Counted from the stretch's first letter, positions 3,266-23,655 are shown. The stretch: DNA of 34,210 nucleotides from an uncultured Thermotogae bacterium (GCA_964416685.1 CAYQFN010000002.1:1-34210); one strand, 5' to 3'. Translations and numbers: made by a program. The notes: generated by a model not told the origin, from the sequence alone.

Positions 3266-4585
3266 ATGTTTATCGATGAGACAACGATCCGTGTCGTAGG
3301 TGGGCGCGGCGGAAACGGAGTGATCCGCTTCAGATCCGACAAGCACAACTGGAAGGGAGGCCCGGACGGTGGGAGTGGTGGAGACGGCGGCGATGTTATC
3401 ATCCGCAGCTCACTGAGCATGTCAACCCTGTACCAATTCCGCAATCGACCGAAATTCACCGGCGGACAGGGAGAGGATGGAGGCAGCAACAACAAACAGG
3501 GCGCGCGCGGAAAGCCAACAGTCATCCTGGTCCCCGTTGGTACGATCGTGCGTGACAGCCTCACAGGCGAAGTGCTCGCTGATCTGGTCGCGCCGGAAAC
3601 AGAGGTGGTTGTAGCCCGGGGTGGCGAAGGGGGCCGTGGGAACAGCAGTTTCGTCACCTCATCCCGACAGGCCCCTCGCATCTGCGAGCGAGGCCTCGCG
3701 GGAGATGAACGGACGCTGCGCATGGAACTGCGCCTCATCGCTGATGTGGGGATCATCGGGTATCCAAACGTAGGGAAGTCGAGCCTGATCTCTCGCATAT
3801 CCGGGGTGAGGGCGAAGATCGCCGACTACCCGTTTACCACAATCTCTCCGAATCTCGGGGTTGTCGACGTCGATGGGCGACACCAGTTCGTCGCTGTGGA
3901 CATTCCCGGGCTGATCGAGGGAGCGCACGCTGGCAAGGGATTGGGGGACAGGTTCCTGCGCCATGTGAAGCGCACACGCCTGTTGATTCACATGCTCGAT
4001 TTAGCTAAGCTGGAAGGGCGAGATCCGTTGGAGGACTATCGGCGTATCAATGAAGAGCTGCGAGCGTTCAGCGAGGAATTGGGAACCAGACCACAGATCG
4101 TAGTGGGGAACAAGGTAGACCTGCTCGACGAGGATGATGTTCAAAAAGAGGCCGACAAATTTACTGCAATTGGCGTGGATATCATTCCGATCTCTGTTGC
4201 CACTGGGGCCGGGTTGCGTAGCTTAGTGAATGAGACATACAACAGATTGCAGTCGATCGGCGTAACAGTGGCTGACCGCAGAAGCGTGGTCAAGCGCCGT
4301 GTGTACAGATTTCACGATGAGGAAGGATTCCGCGTTGAGCATGAAGGCGATAAGTTCGTCGTCATAGGGCAGAGGGTAGAGCGACTGGTGACGAAGCTGG
4401 TTCTCGATAGTCGCGATGCGCAGGAGTACCTGAACAATCGGCTAGAGAGGATGGGCGTGTTAAGAGAATTGGATCGGCAGGGGTTCACGCCGGGAGACCC
4501 GTTACGAATTGGAGGAGTGGAACTTGAACTTGAACTTAAGCGGAAGAATCGGCCTCTTCGGGGGCACATTCAACCCACTGCATAG
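3266..4585 (+). CDS. obg: GTPase Obg/CgtA
   Basis: 439 aa. Gly-rich Obg fold (GGRGGNG, GGPDGGSGGDGG). G1 motif GYPNVGKS. G3 DIPGLIEGA. G4 NKVD. C-terminal OCT-like domain (FRVEHEGDKFVVIG...GDPLRIGGVELE). Confidence 0.95.
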   Translation: MFIDETTIRVVGGRGGNGVIRFRSDKHNWKGGPDGGSGGDGGDVIIRSSLSMSTLYQFRNRPKFTGGQGEDGGSNNKQGARGKPTVILVPVGTIVRDSLTGEVLADLVAPETEVVVARGGEGGRGNSSFVTSSRQAPRICERGLAGDERTLRMELRLIADVGIIGYPNVGKSSLISRISGVRAKIADYPFTTISPNLGVVDVDGRHQFVAVDIPGLIEGAHAGKGLGDRFLRHVKRTRLLIHMLDLAKLEGRDPLEDYRRINEELRAFSEELGTRPQIVVGNKVDLLDEDDVQKEADKFTAIGVDIIPISVATGAGLRSLVNETYNRLQSIGVTVADRRSVVKRRVYRFHDEEGFRVEHEGDKFVVIGQRVERLVTKLVLDSRDAQEYLNNRLERMGVLRELDRQGFTPGDPLRIGGVELELELKRKNRPLRGHIQPTA

Positions 4586-5147
4586 CGCGCATCTCATTGT
4601 GGCAAAAGCAGCCTATGAACAGTTCGGGCTATCGAAGATCGTGTTCATCCCGAGCGGGATTCCCCCGCACAAGGAGATCCAGGCCAACGTAACCAAGGAG
4701 GACCGCTACGCGATGGTAAAGGAGGCAATTGAGCCCTACGGCTACTTTTCCGTGTCCCGCGTCGAGATCGACCGCGAGGGGCCTTCATACACGATCGATA
4801 CAATTAGGGCTTTAGAGGCCGATTATCCGCAGGGGCTGTGTTTCATCGTTGGAGCCGATCTGCTGATGCAGATCGAGACGTGGAAGAACCCTCGGGAGCT
4901 TCTTACGAGCGTCCCTTTTCTTATCGCGCCGCGCAACGGCATCTCCAAAGAGACCTTTGCGGCTCCGCCGTTTGACAGGGCAATGATCTTCTTCCTGGAG
5001 ATGGAAGAGGTCGATCTCTCCTCTACCTGGGTGCGTGCTCAAATCGAGCAAGGAGAGGGAATTCCGGATTGTGTGCCAGAACCTGTGGCTAACTATATTG
5101 AGGAGCACGGTTTGTATCAGCACCGAGAACCGGTGCAAGCGAAGTAA
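4524..5147 (+). CDS. nadD: Nicotinate-nucleotide adenylyltransferase
   Basis: GLFGGTFNPLHSAH is the (H/T)xGH nucleotidyltransferase signature. The start is uncertain: in-frame TTG codons at 4509, 4524 and 4530. TTG 4524 has the best spacing to the GGAGGAG at 4511-4517. The 5' end overlaps the obg 3' end. Confidence 0.85.
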   Translation: MNLNLSGRIGLFGGTFNPLHSAHLIVAKAAYEQFGLSKIVFIPSGIPPHKEIQANVTKEDRYAMVKEAIEPYGYFSVSRVEIDREGPSYTIDTIRALEADYPQGLCFIVGADLLMQIETWKNPRELLTSVPFLIAPRNGISKETFAAPPFDRAMIFFLEMEEVDLSSTWVRAQIEQGEGIPDCVPEPVANYIEEHGLYQHREPVQAK

Positions 5148-5898: not shown

Positions 5899-6261
5899 AT
5901 GCCACGAGTACGTGGGGGAAATAAGAGACTACAGAGCCGAAAGAAGATCATGCGGCTGGCAAAGGGATTCAAGGGTAAGCGTGGGACATCGCACCGCATC
6001 GCAAAGCAAGCGGTGATGAAGGCGTTACGCAACAGCTACATCGACCGTCGTCGTCGCAAGCGCGACTTCCGAAGGCTGTGGATCGTGCGGATCGGTGCTG
6101 CGGCAAAGCAGAACGGTCTGTCATACTCAGCCTTTATCGGTGGTATACAGAAGCGCGGAATCGGGCTGAACAGGAAGATGCTCTCGGAGATCGCCGTGCA
6201 TGACGCCGAGACGTTTTCCGTATTGGCGACAATGGCCAAGGAGGAAGCGGTCAAGGGGTAG
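5899..6261 (+). CDS. rplT: 50S ribosomal protein L20
   Basis: 120 aa. MPRVRGGNKRLQSRKKIMRLAKGFKG...FRRLWIVRI is canonical L20. Confidence 0.95.
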   Translation: MPRVRGGNKRLQSRKKIMRLAKGFKGKRGTSHRIAKQAVMKALRNSYIDRRRRKRDFRRLWIVRIGAAAKQNGLSYSAFIGGIQKRGIGLNRKMLSEIAVHDAETFSVLATMAKEEAVKG

Positions 6262-6262
6262 G

Positions 6263-7069
6263 ATGGGTTCACAAGAGATCGCCCTGCGCCTGCGGGAGTT
6301 CTGGAAGGGGGAGGGGTGTCCGATCATCCCGCCTTACGGAGCGATCGCAGCAGGTGGCCTCACCCCGGATCTGTTCTTCGGCGCGCTGGGACCTGAGCCG
6401 TGGCGGAGTTGTCAAGAAGTGACAACGCTTCACTCATCCGCGGTACGCTACAACGGTGATCCACTTCGCCCGATCGTCGATCACCACTTGCAGGTTGCTC
6501 TGCAGGAGCAATCAGGCGAGCTACGCGAGGTATTTACGGAGAGCCTGCGGATGCTGGGGATACAGGCGCGAGATCGAGACGTGCGCTTCGTCGCTTGCAG
6601 CGGCGAAGATGCCTGCATTGCGGTGCGTGCTCCTTGTTGGCACGTGACGGTCGACGGGATTGAGGTGGGGAGCGTCTCCCACCTGCAGCGTGTGGGGGGA
6701 GTCGATGTCGATCGCGTTCCGGTCATCGCGGATTACTCCCTGGGGCGCCTGGCGATTGTCGGGGCTGCTTATGCGGGGAAAGAGACTCCGACAGAGCGGG
6801 ACAGGCAGACATCGACCTACGTTCTTGCGCAGGCCAATCCGGAACGGACGCGTTTACTCTTCTCCCTGCACGCCGATGAGTGCGAGGGTGCGCTCGCGAC
6901 TGGGCTTTTCTTTCCTGCATACGATCATGTTCTTGCGTGTCTGTCCCTGCTGGAGATGTTCGATGCGTGCAGTGATCTGAGCGCAAGGGAGCGCGCTGTG
7001 AGAACGTCGCGCATATCCGATCTCGCGAACAGATGTGCGAAGGCTTATTTAGAGGGGGCCAATGCCTGA
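6263..7069 (+). CDS. glyQ: Glycyl-tRNA synthetase alpha-subunit-like protein, highly divergent at conserved motifs
   Basis: ATG at 6263, one nt after the rplT stop, with AAGGGG upstream. I discounted the track's 6200 start, which lies inside rplT. The protein is colinear with GlyQ (FWKGEGCPII, ALGPEPW, VRF, VDGIEV..LQRVGG, LGRLA), but the blocks I recall as near-invariant are replaced (see findings). Confidence 0.7.
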   Translation: MGSQEIALRLREFWKGEGCPIIPPYGAIAAGGLTPDLFFGALGPEPWRSCQEVTTLHSSAVRYNGDPLRPIVDHHLQVALQEQSGELREVFTESLRMLGIQARDRDVRFVACSGEDACIAVRAPCWHVTVDGIEVGSVSHLQRVGGVDVDRVPVIADYSLGRLAIVGAAYAGKETPTERDRQTSTYVLAQANPERTRLLFSLHADECEGALATGLFFPAYDHVLACLSLLEMFDACSDLSARERAVRTSRISDLANRCAKAYLEGANA

Positions 7070-8984
7070 TCTCCTGCTTGAAATCGGGACTTACGAGATG
7101 TCGCCAGACCAGCTCTCTCCACTTACTGGAGAGCTCTTTCTGCGCGCCGGGGAGGCGCTGACAGGGAACGGATTGCGTGAAGGCAGTGTGCGCGTTCTCT
7201 ACACACCCCGTCGACTAGCATTGATCGCGCGCGATCTCGTGTGCGAAGGCGCTGATGAAGAAGAGACCGATGATACCATCTTGCGCGCCCTGACCGACGT
7301 CGTGAGCGCACTTGTAATAAAGGAGGCGCATCATCAGGAGGGATCTCCCGGCGGATCCATTCCGCAGGTCAGCTCCCTTGTGTGCTTGTATGGGGAACGG
7401 GTTGTGCCATTGTGCATTCGGAAGCTGTGTGCGGGGCGGACCACGCGAGGCCACTGGCGAGTCGCTGGAGAAAAGGAAGTGGTGCTATCTTGCGCGGCCG
7501 ACTATGAAGAGATGCTTGCTAGTGCGGGCGTTGTCGTTGATCCCGACAGGCGCAAGCGGATGGTGCGTGAAGCGATTGCTGTCGCTTCGCGTGAGGTGAA
7601 GGCAGTTGCACAGGTTGATGATGATCTATTGAGCGCGATCGCGCTTTGCACCGAGTTTCCGCGGCCCGTGATCGGCGAGGTGCTTCTCCCTTCCGATCTT
7701 CCAATGGCGTTTGCCGGTGCTTCGCTGCGTGAGGCGGGTTTCGTCCCGCTTGTTTCGGGCAATACAGGCCGGATACAGTTCGTCGGCTTTACCGATGGAC
7801 CGGTTAAGGAGGAGGTGGTGAGGGCCGGATTCGAGCGCGTGGCGCGAAGTGAGCTATGGGGTTGCCAGCTTCTGTTCGAGCGGGATCGCGAGACAACGCT
7901 TGCTGCCCATGTTCGTCCCCTGCGCGAGATTGCTGATCCGCGCGGGTTGGGCTCACTGTGGGAGAAGATGGAACGATTGCGGGCGTTCTCCGGTGAGATT
8001 GCCAGAGTAGTTGGTGCTTCCGCGGAGGTGATTGATCGAGCGGCATTCCTCTGCCTGGCTGACCTCTCAACTCAGATTGTACACGCCTTCCCAGAGCTGC
8101 ACGGGATCGCCGGGGCAACCTACGCTGTGCTCGATGGGGAAGATGCACGTGTTTGCAGTGCGATCGAAGAGGCGGCACTCGCTGGTGGCAACAGCGCTCG
8201 ACGCCCCACGCACTTGGAAGGGCTCGTTGTCGCGATCGCTTCAGAGTATGACGATATTGTGACCCACCTCTTGGCTGAGGGGGATGCGCAGGATCCAGTG
8301 TTGGTCAATCTGGCAAGCGATCTGACCGGCCTGATAGTGGGGGAAAAGCTGGATATAGATCCGGTCACTCTTCTCGATCAGGCATGCGAACAGATCCGCA
8401 TCCTCTCTCCTGTGATGAAGATGCAGGATCTGAAGAGAGGATTGCGCGCCTGTCTCGAGAAGGGGATAGCGGGCTATCTTGAGACGGTGCAAGGTGTTTC
8501 TACAAGGATTAGATCTGCTCTTCCGCGGGAGGTAAAGGCGAACCCATACCGAAGCAGCCTATGTGCAAAGGCATTGCAGGAGGCGAGCGTGAAGGAGGGG
8601 TTTTCCCGCTTGCTGGTGTCGATTGCGAAGTTAAGTGCCCGCCTCGAAGTTGGAGAGCCGCGCGCGTACGATCCCGCTCTCTTTGAGACGGAGGGTGTGC
8701 GGTCGCTGTGGCGCGAGTATCTGAAGGCGGAAGGAAAGGTGGGTCCCCTGCTCGCACAGCTGGACTACGAGCGTGCGATCGAGGATCTCATCTCCTTCCG
8801 GGGTGCGATCGATCGCTATCTTGACGATGTAGATTTGCATGCAGGATCCGATGAAGTGAGAGAGAACAGCTTGGGGCTTATCTCAGCGATCGTCGATCTG
8901 TACGCACGCGTGGCTGACTTCGACATGCTCGTTGAGGACCAAGCAGACAATCTACCCCAAGCAGAGAGAGAAGATGAAAAATAG
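7062..8984 (+). CDS. glyS: Glycyl-tRNA synthetase beta-subunit-like protein, divergent and shortened in the N-terminal region
   Basis: 640 aa. LLLEIGTYEMSP, YTPRRLALIARDL, GRTTRGHW, LGSLWEKMERL and ADLSTQIVHAFPELHGIAGATYA parallel the GlyS blocks. The start overlaps the glyQ-like stop (ATGCCTGA). Confidence 0.7.
   Translation: MPDLLLEIGTYEMSPDQLSPLTGELFLRAGEALTGNGLREGSVRVLYTPRRLALIARDLVCEGADEEETDDTILRALTDVVSALVIKEAHHQEGSPGGSIPQVSSLVCLYGERVVPLCIRKLCAGRTTRGHWRVAGEKEVVLSCAADYEEMLASAGVVVDPDRRKRMVREAIAVASREVKAVAQVDDDLLSAIALCTEFPRPVIGEVLLPSDLPMAFAGASLREAGFVPLVSGNTGRIQFVGFTDGPVKEEVVRAGFERVARSELWGCQLLFERDRETTLAAHVRPLREIADPRGLGSLWEKMERLRAFSGEIARVVGASAEVIDRAAFLCLADLSTQIVHAFPELHGIAGATYAVLDGEDARVCSAIEEAALAGGNSARRPTHLEGLVVAIASEYDDIVTHLLAEGDAQDPVLVNLASDLTGLIVGEKLDIDPVTLLDQACEQIRILSPVMKMQDLKRGLRACLEKGIAGYLETVQGVSTRIRSALPREVKANPYRSSLCAKALQEASVKEGFSRLLVSIAKLSARLEVGEPRAYDPALFETEGVRSLWREYLKAEGKVGPLLAQLDYERAIEDLISFRGAIDRYLDDVDLHAGSDEVRENSLGLISAIVDLYARVADFDMLVEDQADNLPQAEREDEK
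7632..7645. repeat. Perfect 14 bp palindrome AGCGCGATCGCGCT, an extended HIP1-like GCGATCGC core, inside the glyS-like CDS
   Basis: Read directly. The sequence is its own reverse complement. Confidence 0.9.
8805..8816. repeat. Perfect 12 bp palindrome GCGATCGATCGC inside the glyS-like CDS
   Basis: Read directly. The sequence is its own reverse complement. Confidence 0.9.
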
Positions 8985-9357
8985 GCTAACAAGCGCGCGC
9001 ATCGAGGTGTGCGGAATCGAACTTATCGGTTTCCACGGGTACTACGATGCAGAACGGACTAAAGGGAATCGCTTCTCCGTCGATCTCCGAGCAGAGGGAG
9101 ACTTTCATTCCTCACTTGCGAGCGATCGATTGGAGGAGTCCATCGACTATTCGCAAATGGTACGGGTTGTTCGCGATGTCAATCAGGCAAGAGATTATCT
9201 TCTCATCGAGTCCTTCGCCGCTGATATTGCCGACGCCATGCTTGAGCGATTCCCGCGCATGCAGAGGATCTTCGTACGGGTGGAGAAACTGGCCCCGATG
9301 GGCCTAGGAAGAGTGAGATGTGCAGCGATAGAGCTGGAGAAAGAGAGGGAGCAGTAG
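8974..9357 (+). CDS. folB: Dihydroneopterin aldolase
   Basis: RIEVCGIELIGFHGYYDAERTKGNRFSVDL...IDYSQ is FolB-like. I prefer ATG 8974 (MKNRLTSARIE), which overlaps the glyS-like end by 11 nt. The track's 8932 start would lie deeper inside glyS. Confidence 0.85.
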   Translation: MKNRLTSARIEVCGIELIGFHGYYDAERTKGNRFSVDLRAEGDFHSSLASDRLEESIDYSQMVRVVRDVNQARDYLLIESFAADIADAMLERFPRMQRIFVRVEKLAPMGLGRVRCAAIELEKEREQ

Positions 9358-11407: not shown

Positions 11408-11522
11408 GTGAATTCCTCTTGACATCAGTCCTGCAAGAACGGAATTAGAGGACACTACCCGCTCGAAACGATAAGGAACCTAAAGAGAGTGGTGCTAGAT
11501 GAGGCGGCGTACGGAGGACCGA

Positions 11523-12509
11523 ATGCGAGCACTGGTGACTGGGGGGACGGGATTCATCGGATCGAGCATCGTGCGTGAGCTGTTGCGCGCTGACTATGAG
11601 GTTCGCGTTCTCATTCGCAGCGGATCAGACACGCGTAATCTCGATGGGCTTGAGATTGAGCGCGTCATCGGCGACATCACGGATCCAACCTCTCTTGCTC
11701 GTGCCATGCGCGGCTGTACACGCGTGTTCCATGCGGCAGCCCTGTACTCCTTTTGGGTCACTGTCCCTGGCTTGATCGAGCGGGTGAACGTTGAGGGGAC
11801 GAGAAATGTACTGCAGGCGTCTTTGGAGGCAGGGATAGAGCGTGTGGTGTACACGAGCTCGGTGGCCGCTCTTGCTGTTCCGAGCGCAGGCAGTCCGGTC
11901 GATGAAGCGACGCCTGTCGACCCGAGCGCGATCATCGGGGAATACAAGAAGAGCAAGTACGCAGCCGAACAGGTTGCGCTGGAGTATGCGGCAAAGGGGC
12001 TGCCTGTGGTGATCGTCAATCCCTCGTTCCCCGTTGGTCCCCGCGACATCAAGCCGACCCCGACCGGCCAGACGATCGTTGACTTCCTCAACCATCGCCT
12101 TCCGGCCTACGTCGATACCGGGATGAACGTTGTCGATGTGGAGGATGTCGCGCGCGGTCACGTTCTCGCCGCGGAAAGGGGGAGAGTCGGCGAGCGCTAC
12201 ATCCTCGGAGGGAAGAATATGACGATGGGGGAGCTTCTCGGTCTCCTATCCGAGATCACAGGCATCAGCGCTCCACGAATGCAGTTGCCCTATCAGCCCC
12301 TCCTTGCCCTGTCTTATCTGAACGCAGCCTGGTGCAGAATGACAAGGACTACTCCCAGAATGACGCCGGACACGATACGCATGTCACACCACTACATGTA
12401 CTACGACCCGAGTAAAGCGATAAATGAGTTGGGGATGCCGCAGACGCCGCCGGAGGTGGCGCTGAAGAAGGCGGTCGATTGGTACGTAGAGAATGGCTAC
12501 ATCAAATAG
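11523..12509 (+). CDS. NAD(P)-dependent epimerase/dehydratase of the extended SDR family, HpnA or dihydroflavonol-reductase-like
   Basis: MRALVTGGTGFIGS Rossmann motif, and YKKSK (YxxxK) catalytic motif. ATG 11523 is preceded by GGAGGA at 11513-11518. An alternative upstream ATG lies at 11499. Confidence 0.8.
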   Translation: MRALVTGGTGFIGSSIVRELLRADYEVRVLIRSGSDTRNLDGLEIERVIGDITDPTSLARAMRGCTRVFHAAALYSFWVTVPGLIERVNVEGTRNVLQASLEAGIERVVYTSSVAALAVPSAGSPVDEATPVDPSAIIGEYKKSKYAAEQVALEYAAKGLPVVIVNPSFPVGPRDIKPTPTGQTIVDFLNHRLPAYVDTGMNVVDVEDVARGHVLAAERGRVGERYILGGKNMTMGELLGLLSEITGISAPRMQLPYQPLLALSYLNAAWCRMTRTTPRMTPDTIRMSHHYMYYDPSKAINELGMPQTPPEVALKKAVDWYVENGYIK

Positions 12510-13097: not shown

Positions 13098-14375
13098 TCA
13101 CTTTTCTCTCGGCAGTCTTGCATCGGTCGAGGGCCCAACGACGGCGATGTTCATAGTTGCAGAATCGATGTAGGCCTCGATGACCCGTTGTGCATCGTCT
13201 ACGCTGACGGCATCGATGCGGGCGATCACCTCGTCGGGAGACAGGATCTCGCCACCCGTGATCGCTGCGCTTCCCAGGCGAGCCATGTGGTTGATGTTTG
13301 ATTCGAGATCGAGGATGAAGTTCCCCCGCAGCTTCGCCTGCGCGAGATGGATTTCCTCTGGCCGTACACCCGTGCGCCGCAGCGCGCTGAGCTCTTCGAG
13401 GAGGATGTCCAGCGTGCGATCGACATTCTCCGGAGCGATTCCAGCGTAGGTGAGCCATAATCCAGCATCGGAGTAGCTAATCACAGAACTCGATACAGCG
13501 TATGCTAACCCCTGCTCCTCACGCACGTGGATGAACAGGCGCGAGCTCATCCCTCCACCGAGGATGGCGTTCACCACTTCAGCAGCGAAGCGGTCATCGC
13601 TTCTGGCATCAGGGGCAGGCAGGCCGATGTAGATGTGGGTCTGACCCGTGTCTCGCGTGTGGGAGACCCTATCGCTCTTGAGGATCGGGGAGCGACGCAG
13701 CGAATCTGGCGCTTCTTGTGACGCACCATCGAAGAGGCGCGATGCAAGATTGACGATGCTTGTGGTATCCGCTGCCCCGCATACCACGAGGATCATTCTC
13801 TCTGGCTGGTAGAAGCTGGAGTGAAAGGAGATGAGGGTATCTCGGGATACGCTGTCTATAGTCTCGCGTTTCCCGAGGACGGGCCGCGCTAGGGGATGGC
13901 TCTCCTGCCATAGACCGGCGTTGAATAGGTCGTAGGCCTGCTGCTCGGGGTCGTCATCCCTCCCCCGAATCTCCTCCAGGACAACACCGCGCTCGCGCTC
14001 CAGTTCTTCGGGAGCGAAGGCGGGGTGTTGGGTGATGTCGGCGATTATCTCCAACACTTCCTGCAGGGCACTTGCTGGTGCCTCGGCGTAGTAGAATGTC
14101 GACTCCTTGCCTGTCGCCCCGTTGATCTGCCCTCCCAGGGCGTCGATCTGACGCGAGATCTCCCTTGCGCTTCGCGTGGGGGTTCCCTTGAACAACATGT
14201 GTTCGACGAAGTGTGCTATCCCGGGCTGAGAAGCGGGATCATCACGGCTTCCGACCCTCGCCCATAGTCCAACACTGACGGAGCGTGAATGCGGGACCTC
14301 TTCCACGAGGACCCGCATTCCGTTATCCAGTATTACTTCAGAGAGCCCCTGATAGAGGCGGGATGTCTTCACCAA
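13098..14375 (-). CDS. M16-family zinc metallopeptidase (pitrilysin-like, MlpA/YmxG-type)
   Basis: 425 aa with the inverted zinc motif HFVEHMLFKGT (HxxEH). It lies downstream of pnp, as in many bacteria. The start is TTG 14375 or GTG 14372, which gives a GTGA overlap with the pnp stop. Confidence 0.85.
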   Translation of the reverse strand: MVKTSRLYQGLSEVILDNGMRVLVEEVPHSRSVSVGLWARVGSRDDPASQPGIAHFVEHMLFKGTPTRSAREISRQIDALGGQINGATGKESTFYYAEAPASALQEVLEIIADITQHPAFAPEELERERGVVLEEIRGRDDDPEQQAYDLFNAGLWQESHPLARPVLGKRETIDSVSRDTLISFHSSFYQPERMILVVCGAADTTSIVNLASRLFDGASQEAPDSLRRSPILKSDRVSHTRDTGQTHIYIGLPAPDARSDDRFAAEVVNAILGGGMSSRLFIHVREEQGLAYAVSSSVISYSDAGLWLTYAGIAPENVDRTLDILLEELSALRRTGVRPEEIHLAQAKLRGNFILDLESNINHMARLGSAAITGGEILSPDEVIARIDAVSVDDAQRVIEAYIDSATMNIAVVGPSTDARLPREK

Positions 14376-16900
14376 CGATCCTCGAATGGCGCTGGTTCTT
14401 GCTTCTTTGCCGTGGGCTCAGTAGGCGGCTCCAGCTGCTCCTCTTGCTCCTCTTCGTGGCTTTCCTGCTTTCCGCGCTTGGTCTCTCCCTGTGGGACGAT
14501 ACGCCGGAGCTTGTAGCGGCCGCGCTCATCGATGTCGAGGACCTCTACCTTCACCTTGTCGCCCGGCTTCACGACGTCTGATACTCGGCGTACGTACTCG
14601 TCGGAGAGGGCGGAGATGTGTATGAGACCCGTTACCTCCGGAGTGAGCTCGACGAAGGCGCCGTAGTCGGTCGTGTTGGCGATCGTGCCGTCGATGATGT
14701 CCCCAACCTTGATCGAAGGGTCGACCTTCTTGGGCGCATGGTGGCCGTTCTTCCCGTTCCCGCGGGAGTGCCCACGATGGTGCGAGCTCTCATCCCAGTT
14801 TGCTCCCTCGATGACGCGACGCAGGTCCGGTCGGCCCATCTTGTCCTCGCCGATGACCTCGATCGTGATCTCGTCACCCGGCTTGACGATGTCGCGCACG
14901 TTGTCCACGAAACCGGGAGCGAGGTTGGAGACGTGCACCAGCCCTTCGCTTCCGTTCTTCAGATCGACGAACGCTCCGAAGTCGACCACGCGCGTCACCT
15001 TCGTCGTCATTTTTGTGCCGACCTCGATCTCCGCTGTGAGGTCCTCGACCCAACGCTTCGCCGCCTCCACCGACTCCATGTCCACGCTGGCCAGCTTCAC
15101 CGTGCCATCGTCCTCGATGTCGATCTGGGCTCCGGTCTCCTCGATGATCTTGCGGATCATCTTTCCCCCCGGTCCGATGACGAGTCCGATCTTCTCCCGC
15201 GGGATGGTGATCGTCTCCAATCGAGGTGCGTACATCGACAGCTGCTCACGCGGTTCAGGGAGGGTCTGCTCCATCTTGGCCAGGATCTCCAAGCGGGCTT
15301 GCTTCGCCTGTTCGAGTGCCTTACGCAGTGTATCGCGCCCGATCCCCCCGACCTTTACATCCAGCTGGAACCCGGTGATCCCATCGCGCGTCCCGATCAC
15401 CTTGAAGTCCATGTCGCCGTAGTGATCTTCGTCGCCGAGGATATCGGTGAGGATGACCCGCCTCTGCGTAGATTCATCCTCGATCATCCCCATAGCGATT
15501 CCAGCCACCGGCTTCTTGATCGGAACACCGGCGTCCATCATAGCCAGCGATCCGCTGCACACCGTCGCCATCGAGGAAGAGCCGTTCGACTCGAGAATCT
15601 CCGACACGATGCGGATTACGTATGGGAATTCTTCCTCGCTTGGGAGGACGGCGCGAAGCCCGCCCTCGGCAAGGTAGCCGTGTCCGATGGAGCGTCGGCT
15701 GGGAGAGCCCATCCGCCTAACTTCCCCTACGGAATAGGGAGGGAAGTTATAGTGGAGCATGAACCGCTTCGTCCCTTCCTTCATCATCTGATCGATGATC
15801 TGCTCATCGCCGCGCGTCGCGCCAAGGGTGGCGATCCCCAGGCTTTGGGTCTCGCCACGGGTGAAGATGGCCGAACCGTGCGCGCGGGGAAGGACGCCGA
15901 CTTCGCACGTGATGTTCCTAATCTCATCCGGTCGACGACCGTCGATGCGCACCCCGCGATCGAGGATTTGATTGCGCATATACTCCCGATACAGGTCGTC
16001 GACGATGGCGGCAACCTTCTTCTGCAGCGCGGGCGCCTCGTCGGACGGGACGGCATCCGTGACGATGCTCTCTATGGCGTGATCGCGCAGCGATTTTACG
16101 AAATCGGCGCGTTCTTTCTTGTTTCCTAGAGAGCTCATGGCGGGAAACTCACGGTTGACCAGTGCAGCTACTCGCTCACGCAGAGAAGCATCCTCCTCGG
16201 GCGAAGGAGCGATCTCCTTCTTCACCGGGTGCACCCGTTCCACAAACCTCTCTTGCAGCTCGACGAGCTGCCGGATCGCGTCGTGTCCGATGCCGATCGC
16301 GCTCACGACCTCCTCTTCAGAGAGCTCGTTCATCAGCCCCTCAACCATGGTCACCGTCTGCTTCGTCCCCGCGACCGTGATCTCCATACTCCCCTCTTCC
16401 TTTACCTCGGCACCGGGGTTCACCACGAACTGTCCGTCCTTGTACCCAACTTGCACACCGGCTATCGGGCCGTTGAACGGAGCCTCGGAGATCATCAGCG
16501 CTGCCGATGCTCCCAGGATGCTCAGCATGCTTGGCGAGCAGTCGATCTCGGCCGAGAGGACGGTGGCGACGATCTGTACCTCCTCTTTGTACCCATCAGG
16601 GAAGAGCGGCCGGATCGGCCGGTCTATCATGCGTGCGCTGAGAATGGCGACGTCGCTTGGACGCCCCTCACGCTTGAAGAAGCCACCGGGGATCTTGCCG
16701 CTGGCGTAGAAACGCTCTTCGTAGTCGACACGAAGCGGAAAATAGTCGATATCCTCTCTGCTCTCTTGTACACATACGGTTACTAGGACACGTGTGTCTC
16801 CATAACTTGCCAGTACAGCTCCACTCGCCTGCTTGGCGAGCCTCCCCGTCTCTAGGGAGAATTCTTTACCATTAAATTCTATACTTTCCTTGATTAACAT
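14369..16900 (-). CDS. pnp: Polyribonucleotide nucleotidyltransferase (PNPase) with two tandem C-terminal S1 domains and a charged tail
   Basis: 843 aa. Two RNase PH-like cores, a KH domain (IGLVIGPGGKMIRKI), then S1 number 1 (VTRVVDFGAFVDLKNGSEGLVHVS), a His/Gly/Lys-rich linker, S1 number 2 (GTIANTTDYGAFVELTPEVTGLIHIS) and an E/Q/K-rich tail. Confidence 0.95.
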   Translation of the reverse strand: MLIKESIEFNGKEFSLETGRLAKQASGAVLASYGDTRVLVTVCVQESREDIDYFPLRVDYEERFYASGKIPGGFFKREGRPSDVAILSARMIDRPIRPLFPDGYKEEVQIVATVLSAEIDCSPSMLSILGASAALMISEAPFNGPIAGVQVGYKDGQFVVNPGAEVKEEGSMEITVAGTKQTVTMVEGLMNELSEEEVVSAIGIGHDAIRQLVELQERFVERVHPVKKEIAPSPEEDASLRERVAALVNREFPAMSSLGNKKERADFVKSLRDHAIESIVTDAVPSDEAPALQKKVAAIVDDLYREYMRNQILDRGVRIDGRRPDEIRNITCEVGVLPRAHGSAIFTRGETQSLGIATLGATRGDEQIIDQMMKEGTKRFMLHYNFPPYSVGEVRRMGSPSRRSIGHGYLAEGGLRAVLPSEEEFPYVIRIVSEILESNGSSSMATVCSGSLAMMDAGVPIKKPVAGIAMGMIEDESTQRRVILTDILGDEDHYGDMDFKVIGTRDGITGFQLDVKVGGIGRDTLRKALEQAKQARLEILAKMEQTLPEPREQLSMYAPRLETITIPREKIGLVIGPGGKMIRKIIEETGAQIDIEDDGTVKLASVDMESVEAAKRWVEDLTAEIEVGTKMTTKVTRVVDFGAFVDLKNGSEGLVHVSNLAPGFVDNVRDIVKPGDEITIEVIGEDKMGRPDLRRVIEGANWDESSHHRGHSRGNGKNGHHAPKKVDPSIKVGDIIDGTIANTTDYGAFVELTPEVTGLIHISALSDEYVRRVSDVVKPGDKVKVEVLDIDERGRYKLRRIVPQGETKRGKQESHEEEQEEQLEPPTEPTAKKQEPAPFEDRW

Positions 16901-20685: not shown

Positions 20686-22851
20686 ATGAGACGTAGCTTA
20701 TTGCTTATCCTGGGATGTCTGTTGATCGTCGGATTGAGCGTGACAGCAGCGAACTTCCCGGTCACTGTGTCAGGGATTGCTGTCGATGGAAATGTGAACA
20801 TCAAGACGAGCGACATCATGAAGGCGATCACCTTTCACGCTGGGGATGAGATCACAGCCGATCAACTGAAGAGTGCGTCGCAAGCGGTCTACGACCTTGG
20901 CTGGTTCAGTGACGTAATCCCGGAGATCGACGATACGGGAATGGTGACGTTCAAGGTGAGCGAGAACCCGGTGGTGAAGAAGATCGAGATTACGGGGAAC
21001 GTGAACACAGAGCCGTTCAGCATTCTTGGGTTCACCCTGTTTCGTACTCGCATCATGACCAGTGATAAGGCACGCAGCATCCTGCGCGACAACGGAGTGA
21101 AGACAGGGAAGGTCTTGAACAACAACTCGTTGAAGGATGGGCTGCAAGCGGTGATCGATGCCTACGAGAAGAAGGGCTACGCCCTGATCATGATCGGCAA
21201 GGTAACCCCGGGCGAGACGCTATCGATACAGATCATCGAAGGAAGAATAACAGCGAACATAGTGACCGGCTTGTCCACCGTCCCAGAGAAGATCGCCGAG
21301 GATATGATCGACCTGCCGCTGAACGAGTGTTTGAAGAAGGCGGCGATCCAGCGGGTGATGTCAAACCTGCAGGGATCGGTCTATTTCTCCAATGTTGATG
21401 TCAAGGTGCAACAAGGAGGGACACCTGATTCCGTGCGACTGGTGTGGACGCTAACGGAACGCAAGTTGATAGATGAGCCGATCACGATCAACGCGATCGA
21501 TCTCTTGGGGGTGACGCTCTTCCCGCGTCAGATCGCGGATGGAGCGATCGGTAACATACCTCAAGGGCAGATCGATAACTACGGGCTGTTACACGTCCTG
21601 GAGGGGCTGTTCAACCTTTACTACCGCAACGGGTACGTCATGGTGAGGTTCGTCCCCGGGCAGGTCACAAACGGTCGCCTTCCGCTCACTGTGGAGGAAG
21701 GGAAGATTGGAAAGATTGAGATTAGCGGCAACGATCGCACAAAGACGTACGTGATCGAGAAAGTTTTCGGAATGAAGCCGGGTGATATCCTAAACAAGAA
21801 TCGCCTGGCGGTCTCCTATCAGAGGCTGATGGCACTTAAGTACTTCAACTCGGTCAACGTGAATCCGCAGTGGTCAGACGATAGCGTTGATCTCTCGATC
21901 TCCGTCGTCGAGAACACGAAACTAGGCGGGATCAACGGATCGGTCGCCTTCTCCCCGGAGAGCGGAGGGCTCGTTGGAAAGCTTAACTACAGTCAGAAAA
22001 ACCTCTTTGGAACAGGACAGGATCTCTCCTTCTCATTCAGCCGCGGATTGGTGAACGATCAGAGCGCCACGTGGGACCTTGGCTACAGCACCGTCGGCTT
22101 CTTCCGCGCCTTCAACCGTGTGGGAGTCGATTTCTACCGCAAGAGTGATGAGAAGAGTGACAGTGAAGGAAATTCGACCACGTTCCTCAGTCTAGGAGGA
22201 ACAGCATCGATCAGCTACCCCGTCATGGACTATACAGACATGTCTCTTTCCTACAAGCACGAGACAGTGAGTGCCTCGGACGATGCAACCTGGCACCCGA
22301 TCGATTCGATCACAACCGGGCTTGCCTATGACGACGTGAACAACCCGCACTTCCCTACTTCTGGGGACAGGCGGTCGCTGACACTCGAAAAGGCGGGCGG
22401 TTTTGCTCCGGGGCCGGACTATGCCAAGTTCAACCTGAGCTGGGTCCACTTTACGCCGTTGTACAGCAACCTCCCATTTATCTCCGAGCGTGACCAGGTT
22501 CTCGCTGTGCGCTTGGCTGGGGGCTGGGGGGCGAACATACCGTACTCGCAGGCATACGACCTGGGCGGGCCGGGAACGATCCGCGGGACAACCGCAAGCC
22601 CAGTACAACGCCTGGCGTACGCTAACTTCGAATACCGCTTGGCTGTGGTAGAAGGTCTCACAGGAACTCTCTTCCTCGACACCGGCGTGCCCCTTGACAA
22701 CGTTAGTCTCTCGGCTGCAAAGGGATCGTTCGGGATCGAGTTTGGGATTGAGGCGGCAGGAATGTATGTTCGCCTGGACATGGCGTGGGTATTGGGGCCG
22801 GACATGGGATGGGTCCCACACTTCGACTTCGGGTTTAGCCCGATGTTCTAA
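20686..22851 (+). CDS. bamA: Omp85/BamA-family outer-membrane protein assembly factor (POTRA repeats plus beta-barrel)
   Basis: 721 aa. Signal peptide MRRSLLLILGCLLIVGLSVTAA. POTRA-like repeats (VSGIAVDGNVNIK...; VVKKIEITGN...; IGKIEISGNDRTKTYVI). Aromatic-rich barrel ending in the beta-signal-like GFSPMF. AAGGAGGAG SD. Confidence 0.85.
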   Translation: MRRSLLLILGCLLIVGLSVTAANFPVTVSGIAVDGNVNIKTSDIMKAITFHAGDEITADQLKSASQAVYDLGWFSDVIPEIDDTGMVTFKVSENPVVKKIEITGNVNTEPFSILGFTLFRTRIMTSDKARSILRDNGVKTGKVLNNNSLKDGLQAVIDAYEKKGYALIMIGKVTPGETLSIQIIEGRITANIVTGLSTVPEKIAEDMIDLPLNECLKKAAIQRVMSNLQGSVYFSNVDVKVQQGGTPDSVRLVWTLTERKLIDEPITINAIDLLGVTLFPRQIADGAIGNIPQGQIDNYGLLHVLEGLFNLYYRNGYVMVRFVPGQVTNGRLPLTVEEGKIGKIEISGNDRTKTYVIEKVFGMKPGDILNKNRLAVSYQRLMALKYFNSVNVNPQWSDDSVDLSISVVENTKLGGINGSVAFSPESGGLVGKLNYSQKNLFGTGQDLSFSFSRGLVNDQSATWDLGYSTVGFFRAFNRVGVDFYRKSDEKSDSEGNSTTFLSLGGTASISYPVMDYTDMSLSYKHETVSASDDATWHPIDSITTGLAYDDVNNPHFPTSGDRRSLTLEKAGGFAPGPDYAKFNLSWVHFTPLYSNLPFISERDQVLAVRLAGGWGANIPYSQAYDLGGPGTIRGTTASPVQRLAYANFEYRLAVVEGLTGTLFLDTGVPLDNVSLSAAKGSFGIEFGIEAAGMYVRLDMAWVLGPDMGWVPHFDFGFSPMF

Positions 22852-22911: not shown

Positions 22912-23655
22912 ATGTCCAAAAACACACTCGTTGTATCCGTTGTTGCTCTGTTGCTTGCCGCTGTTGCCATCGTGCTTCAGTTCGTGCTCCCCGCCGGTGG
23001 AGGGGCGGACAACACGGCGGAGGTTACTGCTCTTACGAACAGGGTCGCCGCCCTTGAGGCGAACCCCGCTACTCCGCTCAAGGTGGCCTACATCAACGCT
23101 GAGGATGCGTTCACAGTATTCACCGACGCGGTGAGCGATCTGCGGCAGCGGGCGATCGACAAGCAGGGGGAGATCCTAAAGCTTCAGCAGCAGTACATGG
23201 CGAGCACGATCTCTAAGGATGATTTTGACACCCAGAATAACCAGCTTCAGGTGGAGCTGTTGCAGGCACAGCTTAACATCGATCTGGGGACGATCGACAA
23301 GATGATCGCCTCTCCGGGCTTCTCTGACATGAAGAGCGACCTGCAGCGACTGAAGGACGAGGCGCAGCCGGTCGTCGATGAGATGAAGAACCTCGTCTCT
23401 ACTGTGCATGTTGGCGTGATAGACACGACGGAGTTCCAGAACCGCTATATGCAGGTGAAGAATGCGTTTACGCAACTCGATCAGCTTCTAACGAAAGCGG
23501 CTACAACGAAGATCGTGCAGGCGGCGAACAAAGTGGCGGTCGATAACGGATATGACCTTGTGCTACGCACACAGAACGTGATCGTCTATCGCAACACCGC
23601 CAAGCTGACCGACATCACAGACCTCGTGAAGCATGAGCTTGCGTCCTACCTGTAG
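22912..23655 (+). CDS. skp: OmpH/Skp-family periplasmic chaperone with N-terminal hydrophobic anchor or signal
   Basis: 247 aa. N-terminal hydrophobic helix and a long coiled-coil-like Q/L/D-rich middle. The C-terminal block AANKVAVDNGYDLVLRTQNVIVYRN..LTDITDLV is typical of OmpH. Located directly downstream of bamA. Confidence 0.75.
   Translation: MSKNTLVVSVVALLLAAVAIVLQFVLPAGGGADNTAEVTALTNRVAALEANPATPLKVAYINAEDAFTVFTDAVSDLRQRAIDKQGEILKLQQQYMASTISKDDFDTQNNQLQVELLQAQLNIDLGTIDKMIASPGFSDMKSDLQRLKDEAQPVVDEMKNLVSTVHVGVIDTTEFQNRYMQVKNAFTQLDQLLTKAATTKIVQAANKVAVDNGYDLVLRTQNVIVYRNTAKLTDITDLVKHELASYL

Follow-up and report, generated by a model that had tools for sequence, protein, structure and literature searches.

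Bacterial glycyl-tRNA synthetase (GlyRS) exists in two unrelated forms whose patchy distribution implies many past replacements, and in the genomes surveyed the displaced enzyme is simply absent, with both forms occurring together in 1 of 542 proteomes (bioRxiv 10.1101/2023.05.29.542759). GlyRS is counted among the most evolutionarily stable, single-copy aminoacyl-tRNA synthetases (aaRSs; PMC5388404). HisZ, EpmA/PoxA, GluQRS/YadB and the amino acid:carrier-protein ligases are listed as aaRS-derived paralogs that are not synthetases (PMC9437257). Reviews of aaRS duplication name HisZ, EpmA, GluQRS, these ligases and yeast GlyRS2, with no example derived from GlyQS, the two-subunit bacterial enzyme, and in the GlyRS and aaRS literature we found no description of an intermediate of GlyRS replacement. 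Here, we describe a pair of GlyQ- and GlyS-like genes (6263–8984) in a 34,210-nt stretch of DNA labelled as an uncultured Thermotogae bacterium (GCA_964416685.1, CAYQFN010000002.1:1-34210), which in its full length is referred to as the window. The pair very probably degenerated in place in a clade of Bipolaricaulota and no longer serves as the housekeeping GlyRS, and it looks like an aaRS relic or pseudoenzyme in what seems to be an ongoing non-orthologous displacement.

The pair is homologous to bacterial GlyQS over the full length of both subunits and shares with it the predicted folds, the arrangement of adjacent coupled genes with alpha preceding beta, the class II motif-3 arginine and the beta residues K364, R367 and D459. 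It differs from GlyQS in lacking the motif-2 arginine, all but one of the five residues that bind glycine, the two alanine-discriminating threonines, the S8-S9 hairpin and the R277-bearing tail of the alpha subunit, and the B2 domain, acceptor-stem loop and C35 loop of the beta subunit. Like HisZ, EpmA/PoxA, GluQRS/YadB and the carrier-protein ligases, which are built on class II or class I scaffolds, the pair would be a synthetase scaffold that does not charge tRNA for translation; unlike proteins of the HisZ, EpmA and GluQRS type, which are duplicates at another locus beside the parent synthetase and have well-conserved new sites, it occupies the parental slot, both of its subunits degenerated together, its pocket is variable and it has no clearly conserved new site. 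A GlyRS displacement of the documented kind would explain the loss of constraint on a single branch within the phylum, but here the displaced genes would have remained intact ORFs while at least five species-level lineages diverged, and the displacing enzyme is presumed. The pair resembles an ordinary bacterial pseudogene in having lost functional residues, in its raised rate, in recent change that is near neutral and in one copy that may be frameshifted, whereas its 908 codons have remained open in about 10 lineages across ~50% amino-acid divergence, with the lengths and an 8-nt overlap kept. The features of the locus are as follows.

6263..7069, + strand: alpha-like open reading frame (ORF), a degenerate GlyQ homologue of 268 aa; GlyQ fold predicted to be kept, catalytic residues lost
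7062..8984, + strand: beta-like ORF, a degenerate GlyS homologue of 640 aa; B1, B3, HD and ABD folds predicted to be kept, B2 deleted and tRNA-contact loops lost
6428..6433, + strand: codons L56-H57 of alpha, which align with R57/R58 of motif 2 in A. aeolicus numbering (E. coli R63/R64)
6746..6748, + strand: codon R162 of alpha, the retained class II motif-3 arginine, invariant in the clade and in canonical GlyQ
7062..7069, + strand: ATGCCTGA, the 8-nt overlap of the alpha stop and the beta start (translational coupling)
7248..7361, + strand: B2-deletion scar, beta residues ~63–100, acidic and partly disordered, standing in for residues 66–124 of E. coli GlyS
5899..6261, + strand: rplT, the upstream boundary of the conserved slot
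8974..9357, + strand: folB, starting 11 nt inside the end of beta and forming, with folK, the downstream part of the slot

The first-pass annotation of this DNA had read the two ORFs as colinear with GlyQ and GlyS, and both the coordinates and the Pfam profiles bear this out. PF02091 matched the alpha-like protein with 144 bits (gathering score 27) over profile positions 2–275 of 278, and PF02092 matched the beta-like protein with 222 bits (gathering score 29). Both proteins fell below the curated equivalog cutoffs, the alpha subunit by a wide margin (145 against 369 bits for NF006827; 132 against 361 bits for TIGR00388) and the beta subunit with a match in two stretches (277 against 300 bits for TIGR00211), whereas MetRS and PNPase from the same window scored normally, with 648 bits for a cutoff of 587 and 1019 bits for a cutoff of 525, respectively. 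Alignments by phmmer to solved GlyQ structures placed the motif losses at the same columns as the earlier by-eye alignment, which had reported that canonical GlyQ blocks were missing and had itself raised a shifted alignment as a possible error; this agreement with the profiles indicates that the absence of these motifs does not stem from the alignment. AlphaFold (AF2) models were obtained with a predicted local distance difference test score (pLDDT) of 88 and a predicted template modelling score (pTM) of 0.86 for alpha, and with a pLDDT of 87.5 and a pTM of 0.79 for beta, although these confidences are partly borrowed from the canonical homologues in the input alignments. Disorder in the beta model was confined to the B2 scar (pLDDT <50 at residues 87–97) and the C-terminal tail. 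Foldseek superimposed the alpha model on solved GlyQ structures (5F5W, 1J5W, 3RF1 and 7EIV) with template modelling (TM) scores of 0.90–0.92 and the beta model on solved GlyS structures (7YSE, 8IE2 and 7LU4) with TM scores of 0.70–0.79. The models and profiles together identify both ORFs as true GlyQ and GlyS homologues whose predicted folds are intact.

Functional residues were mapped onto E. coli glyQS numbering from the A. aeolicus GlyQ study (PMC4938167) and the E. coli GlyRS structures (PMC8464048, PMC9908026). The alpha-like protein retains 5 of 28 canonical functional positions. In the aligned blocks, WESPxLGAWGLGWEVW corresponds to GEDACIAVRAPCWHVT, TQFTYFQQ to GSVSHLQR and TYGLER to DYSLGR, and another canonical GlyQ block reads LHSSAVRYNGDPLR. 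The column of the motif-2 ATP arginine (R58 in A. aeolicus, R64 in E. coli) holds His in the window and either Asp or Asn in the other clade members, and the preceding R57 column is hydrophobic. The earlier statement that the Arg pair is gone thus holds for motif 2, but the motif-3 Arg (R162) and the Arg of DVRFV are retained, as are Y70, Q84, W133 and E141. Five residues of A. aeolicus GlyQ, T33, Q76, Q78, W115 and E156, are absolutely conserved for glycine recognition (PMC4938167); Q78 alone is kept in the window, the others being changed to Gly (T33), His (Q76), Gly (W115) and Ile (E156). In E. coli numbering the losses comprise T39, R63, R64, D67, Q82, W121, E162, T164 and the tRNA-backbone contact R277, both alanine-discriminating threonines among the positions lost, and further losses affect Trp129, Trp136, E134, E118/D119 and E168. 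A hairpin of ~17 residues (S8-S9) after motif 3 and the C-terminal tail carrying R277 are missing altogether.

Conservation within the clade follows the same pattern. Only 15 of the 80 columns that are invariant across nine diverse canonical GlyQ proteins remain invariant in the clade. Across the clade the W115 column (W121 in E. coli) shows G,G,Y,W,W,E,R,C,C,-, and the residues at E156 (E162 in E. coli) are I,I,V,L,R,V,M,M,V,R; as judged from these columns, such variability in the former pocket is not the pattern of a re-optimised active site. Canonical GlyQ is best conserved in its catalytic core, with a per-region identity of 0.68–0.77, whereas in the clade this core is conserved no better than the rest (0.51–0.57), and the best-kept clade segment is the motif-1 dimer helix (0.73). 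As a separate observation, positions 6431–6433 read CAC (His) in the window and GAC (Asp) in its two nearest strains, L013 and L015, with Asp also in most of the clade, so that the once-invariant position of the motif-2 ATP arginine is polymorphic among near-identical strains.

GlyS consists of five domains, B1-B2-B3-HD-ABD (PMC8464048). The B2 domain (E. coli 66–124), which is implicated in binding the tRNA elbow, is cleanly deleted in 11 of 11 clade members, while the other four domains are present. A short acidic segment stands in its place, and the earlier description of a beta subunit ~50 aa shorter than that of E. coli with an acidic segment near its N-terminus is accounted for by this deletion (E. 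coli GlyS ~70–125). The acceptor-stem loop (G473 to R482 in E. coli, PTGSxDPY..RRQ) has suffered deletions as well as substitutions, and the loop that reads the anticodon C35 (DVLVM) is replaced. Among the residues that contact tRNA-Gly in E. coli GlyS (G473, D474, D476, R481, R482, R531, R585, N588, F652, V655, V657 and M658; PMC9908026), the window protein keeps D476 and V655 and has a conservative change of R585 to Lys; the beta losses include R481, R482, G473, K394, Y434, D456 and M658. The HD domain's cavity, which in the E. coli complex with tRNA touches U73/C74 (PMC9908026), retains K364, R367 and D459 as invariant residues and has lost K394, Y434, D456 and K457. The B1 motif FIRPIRY is kept in other clade members and is lost in the window and its closest relative, indicating that degeneration continued within the clade.

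About a dozen relatives of the alpha-like protein (263–271 aa, 45–99% identity, one of them labelled Candidatus Bipolaricaulota) were found, beyond which the similarity falls abruptly to ~30% at ordinary GlyQ; the beta-like protein has 10 relatives at 49–65% identity. A scan of species-representative genomes recovered the degenerate form in five Bipolaricaulota metagenome-assembled genomes (MAGs), and overall about 10 related lineages of Bipolaricaulota share the degenerate state, in each case with the pair in the same slot of the operon; all of these sequences are metagenome assemblies, with source samples such as DRR093004 and JGI 3300017593. MAGs with the degenerate pair are found under the GenBank WGS accessions CAJVYM01, JALTFO01, JAGGXO01, JAGGSM01 and JAYEFP01. 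An intermediate group of GlyS proteins (P0161–P0176; ~688 aa, with a recognisable DALR anticodon-binding domain) matched the window beta subunit with 34–39% identity and E values of about 1e-90, far closer than other GlyS. In all three genomic contexts retrieved for this closest full-length GlyS group, the slot between rplT and folB is occupied by glyQS. These sister lineages (L023, L024 and L025-27) encode a GlyQ of 282–283 aa and a GlyS of 672–688 aa in identical gene order, and their neighbouring genes are 72–89% identical to those of the window. GCA_975901565.1 and GCA_054010595.1 are examples of genomes from the full-length sister group. In the GlyQS of the sister lineages, the catalytic residues, B2 and the contacts to tRNA are all preserved, and the scores exceed the equivalog cutoffs (401 and 430 bits for GlyQ; 649 and 712 bits for GlyS), whereas a second degenerate pair, like that of the window (145/277 bits), scored below them (123/288 bits for GlyQ/GlyS). 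L023 GlyQ is 49% identical to E. coli GlyQ and 39% identical to the window alpha subunit, although L023 belongs to the window's own lineage.

The presence of a normal glyQS in the same slot of the sister lineages shows that the pair is a positional ortholog degenerated in place rather than a duplicated paralog. The first-pass annotation had proposed a pseudo-synthetase or a repurposed paralog. The first half of this proposal is upheld by the loss of catalytic and tRNA-recognition residues, the scores below the equivalog cutoffs and the strongly relaxed constraint, but the paralogy is not supported in view of full-length glyQS between identical flanks. As for repurposing, the diffuse purifying selection speaks for some constraint on the proteins, while the variable pocket positions of the clade and the near-neutral change between strains speak against it. 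It had also been remarked that the pair sits where pheST usually follows rplT; this is a coincidence of the ancestral gene order of the lineage, and a replacement of pheST by the pair is rejected in view of the normal glyQS that the sister lineages have there. There was likewise no sign of a relocated functional glyQS with a decayed copy left in the slot, the three contexts retrieved all being the rplT-folB slot of other lineages. The canonical GlyQ closest in sequence (P0013) lies in an unrelated context (glyQS-ppdK-rpoD) and is uninformative about ancestry.

The sister GlyQ proteins (L023:9157-10008, L024 and L025) are themselves atypical. They keep 19 of the 28 canonical positions, carry the changes R115K, E118A, D119N, W129G, E134Q, Q144H, T146I, F148L and R277S, and have lost ~20 aa of the C-terminal tail, and several of their derived states are common to the degenerate clade. 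Judged from these sequences, this suggests that the constraint on GlyQ had begun to shift ahead of the collapse. Outside the clade, an exhaustive profile search of a global representative library returned short GlyQ-like proteins of 267–285 aa (P0271, P0272, P0291, P0309, P0326, P0327 and P0375) whose pockets are partly degenerate, with 6–15 of the 28 canonical functional positions kept; most of these proteins have the motif-2 and motif-3 arginines, but the Gln, Glu and Thr residues that bind glycine are changed. Several lineages may thus have GlyQ homologues that are degenerate or re-specified, with the selection bias that this set was picked as the best matches to the degenerate profile.

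The junctions of the pair were found as first described. The rplT stop codon TAG (6259–6261) is separated by one base from the alpha ATG at 6263, the alpha and beta genes overlap through ATGCCTGA, and the folB ATG at 8974 precedes the beta stop codon at 8982–8984 and overlaps the end of beta; folB-folK downstream of the beta gene are probably translationally coupled to it. The alpha-beta overlap is kept in clade members and in the sister lineage L023. The gene order is metG, rplU, x, rpmA, obg, nadD, infC, rpmI, rplT, alpha', beta', folB, folK, rng, hpnA, and the order around the degenerate pair is identical in every contig with enough flank. A search for internal promoters and terminators returned weak consensus matches only, in numbers near those of shuffled controls.

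To compare rates, we used the mean identity of the pair and of MetRS within each group. In the full-length sister group the values were 75% for MetRS, 75% for GlyQ and 62% for GlyS, whereas in the degenerate clade, which is shallower, they were 85%, 54% and 53%, respectively. The pair thus evolves ~3 times faster than its neighbours, while GlyQ of the sister lineages evolves at the rate of MetRS. The low identity of the pair within the clade indicates that the acceleration was sustained across the clade and was not a single burst on its stem. The divergence had been called gene-specific from the window alone, and this stands: between relatives the neighbouring genes are 73–98% identical and the pair 43–54%, and MetRS and PNPase exceed their cutoffs. 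Nei-Gojobori estimates of the ratio of nonsynonymous to synonymous rates (dN/dS) gave 0.23–0.38 for the pair, whereas metG, obg, rng and infC had ratios of 0.03–0.12, and folB and folK ratios of about 0.2; because dS is saturated (>1) in the deeper comparisons, the long-term ratios are approximate and probably overestimated. The ratio is flat along both proteins (0.22–0.39), with no extra constraint on the former catalytic core, and rises to a near-neutral 0.73 in the B2 scar alone. Between the window and L015, which share 99.5% DNA identity, the pair accumulated 12 nonsynonymous and 5 synonymous substitutions, compared with 8 and 28 in 13 neighbouring genes (Fisher p=0.0018, based on 53 substitutions in total). 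The synonymous rates are equal and the nonsynonymous rate of the pair is ~7 times higher, so that by these counts strain-level change in the pair is near neutral.

Glycylation of tRNA is indispensable to the cell. Judged by its sequence, the pair cannot plausibly be a working GlyRS, because the motif-2 Arg and nearly all of the substrate and tRNA determinants are gone, the corresponding positions are variable and the rate is raised; another GlyRS must then exist in these genomes, and we infer that a displacement took place. The reading we favour, and consider probable, is that the pair is a catalytically dead, still-translated relic of this displacement with no specific new function. Starting from an ancestral slot infC-rpmI-rplT-glyQ-glyS-folB-folK, the clade's own glyQS would have ceased to act as GlyRS in its common ancestor. 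The alpha subunit has lost the ATP arginine of motif 2 and four of five glycine-binding residues, and the beta subunit no longer has B2, its tRNA elbow domain, or the loops for the acceptor stem and the anticodon C35. Both genes have since evolved ~3 times faster than their neighbours in every clade lineage, with near-neutral change between close strains. Another GlyRS would have taken over glycylation, most likely a horizontally acquired dimeric 'archaeal-type' enzyme, as the patchy distribution of GlyRS types makes this non-orthologous displacement the likeliest event. The displaced genes may persist as intact, co-translated ORFs for folded but catalytically dead proteins, with weak and diffuse purifying selection keeping the ORFs open. 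This selection could stem from the misfolding cost of products of a ribosomal-protein operon, from translation continuing into the overlapping folB-folK, or from a residual non-catalytic role, and the pair would be drifting slowly toward loss. The near-neutral pattern between strains, the ongoing loss of motifs and the lack of a constraint hotspot favour such a slowly decaying relic.

Several observations weigh against the pair being a functionless relic. Both ORFs are intact, length-conserved and coupled in about 10 lineages at 45–54% identity, and long-term dN/dS lies clearly under 1 in all domains other than the B2 scar; this is more constraint than expected of a functionless relic, and the diffuse ratio of about 0.25 indicates, as far as sequences can tell, constraint at the protein level. 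Some replacements are fixed clade-wide (R64D, N73D, N75L, E134R, T143G-Q144S, T164E and G166S), and together with the invariant K364, R367 and D459 they could mark a new function. The displacing enzyme is presumed: a tblastn search with T. thermophilus GlyRS found no second GlyRS in ~250 kb of clade DNA, a search of ~34 kb per genome that carries almost no weight. The one apparent disruption of the pair is itself ambiguous. A 2-kb contig ~99% identical to the window (L013:1-2008; ENA ERZ27248110 k141_309869) has a 1-nt deletion in a GGGG run of alpha at codons L160-G161-R162 (window ~6741–6744), which frameshifts the gene so that it is called as 238 aa, and this may be a real pseudogenisation or a homopolymer or assembly error.

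Other searches for the presumed enzyme were uninformative. The T. thermophilus query was verified against 1ATI, and the best 120 matches of a protein search with it were all Deinococcota-like or unnamed. Two candidates for the GlyRS of the clade, P0098 and P0085, were rejected since the tetranucleotide signatures of their contigs (r 0.09–0.26, against 0.84–0.97) are not Bipolaricaulota-like. In a scan of JGI metagenomes, 0 of 80 loci kept among the matches listed combined the right signature with the right GC content, and ranking GlyRS candidates by amino-acid composition gave no discrimination. The supplements of Bipolaricaulota/Acetothermia genome papers had no GlyRS entries, and a literature search on Bipolaricaulota and aaRSs returned nothing relevant.

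The main competitor of the relic is a functional pseudo-synthetase, in which a dead (alpha-beta)2 complex was kept after the displacement for a new non-catalytic role; we regard this as possible, though distinctly less probable than decay. The most plausible roles would be use of the retained HD cavity to bind the 3' end of a tRNA or some other RNA, or service as a scaffold or regulator in translation. This would account for the intact coupled ORFs across about 10 diverged lineages, the dN/dS of 0.23–0.38 in all domains, the confidently predicted folds, the invariant K364, R367 and D459 of the HD cavity and the substitutions in the former pocket that are fixed clade-wide, and the pair would tentatively represent the first GlyQS-derived pseudo-synthetase, kept through the radiation of the Bipolaricaulota clade. 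Against it stand the near-neutral change between close strains (12 nonsynonymous to 5 synonymous), the further loss of motifs within the clade and the contig that may carry a frameshift. The acceptor-stem, anticodon and elbow contacts are moreover all lost, constraint is flat in both proteins with no hotspot, and the synteny is ancestral, so that the neighbouring genes offer no clue to a new function.

Neofunctionalisation as an enzyme is improbable. Under this explanation the alpha subunit would bind or activate another substrate in a remodelled pocket, in the manner of the amino acid:carrier-protein ligases or EpmA. The retained motif-3 Arg, DVRFV Arg, Y70, Q84, W133 and E141, the fixation of charge-swapped replacements (R64D, E134R and T164E) and the other GlyQ-like proteins with altered pockets in the global library are compatible with it. 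The motif-2 arginine holds the alpha-phosphate of ATP in all class II enzymes, however, and here it is replaced by Asp, Asn or His. Many pocket positions also vary in the clade, the catalytic core is under no extra constraint, and there are no carrier-protein or biosynthetic genes nearby.

Still harder to sustain is the notion that the pair is the sole GlyRS of the organism, with a radically reinvented active site and mode of tRNA binding that dispense with the motif-2 arginine. It would fit the lack of another GlyRS in the ~250 kb of clade DNA, for the almost negligible weight this search carries, the intact genes in a translation operon and the extreme rarity of bacteria with both GlyRS types noted above. 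An essential synthetase is not expected to evolve 3 times faster than MetRS, in a near-neutral fashion and with variable substrate positions, and this pair has neither the universally conserved motif-2 Arg nor B2, nor the contacts to anticodon and acceptor stem. An artefact, be it misalignment, an error in sequencing or assembly, or a chimeric contig of a MAG, can be dismissed for practical purposes, even though all of the data are metagenome assemblies, because independent ENA, JGI, NCBI and Logan assemblies show the same state with conserved synteny, and HMM, phmmer, MAFFT and structure-based comparisons agree.

If a second GlyRS is present, the relic shows the fate of a displaced enzyme, with both subunits losing catalytic and tRNA-recognition elements and a whole domain together while the proteins persist, folded and translated, for a long time. 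The full-length sister lineages provide a natural comparison of the states before and after, in which the order of events in an aaRS displacement can be tested, and the clade offers a natural map of the GlyQS residues that folding and assembly, as distinct from catalysis, can do without. There is also a practical consequence for annotation: one clade protein (P0009) is automatically called 'glycine--tRNA ligase subunit alpha', and metabolic reconstructions and completeness checks of MAGs may wrongly count GlyRS as present on the basis of the degenerate pair.

Several other genes of the window have features of their own. Obg (3266–4585) is 439 aa long in the window and in L015 and 424 aa long in the more distant L001 and L023, where tblastn reads through a stop codon into the C-terminal extension of ~15 aa, and this extension overlaps the start of the nadD ORF (4509–5147) by up to 77 nt. 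PNPase (14369–16900, − strand) has 842–843 aa, the same length as in L015 and L023; following its normal KH-S1 C-terminus (residues ~620–690), a second S1 domain (residues ~728–820) matches stand-alone S1 RNA-binding regulators of the CvfD/GSP13 type. A 247-aa ORF on the + strand (22912–23655), downstream of a BamA homologue, had no NCBIfam match at E<=1e-5. The BamA-like protein itself (20686–22851) scored 198 bits, under the cutoff of 297, and a hopanoid-associated sugar epimerase, HpnA (11499–12509), scored 446 bits against a cutoff of 368. Going by their sequences, the HpnA and BamA-like genes hint that this lineage of Bipolaricaulota has hopanoid lipids and an outer membrane.

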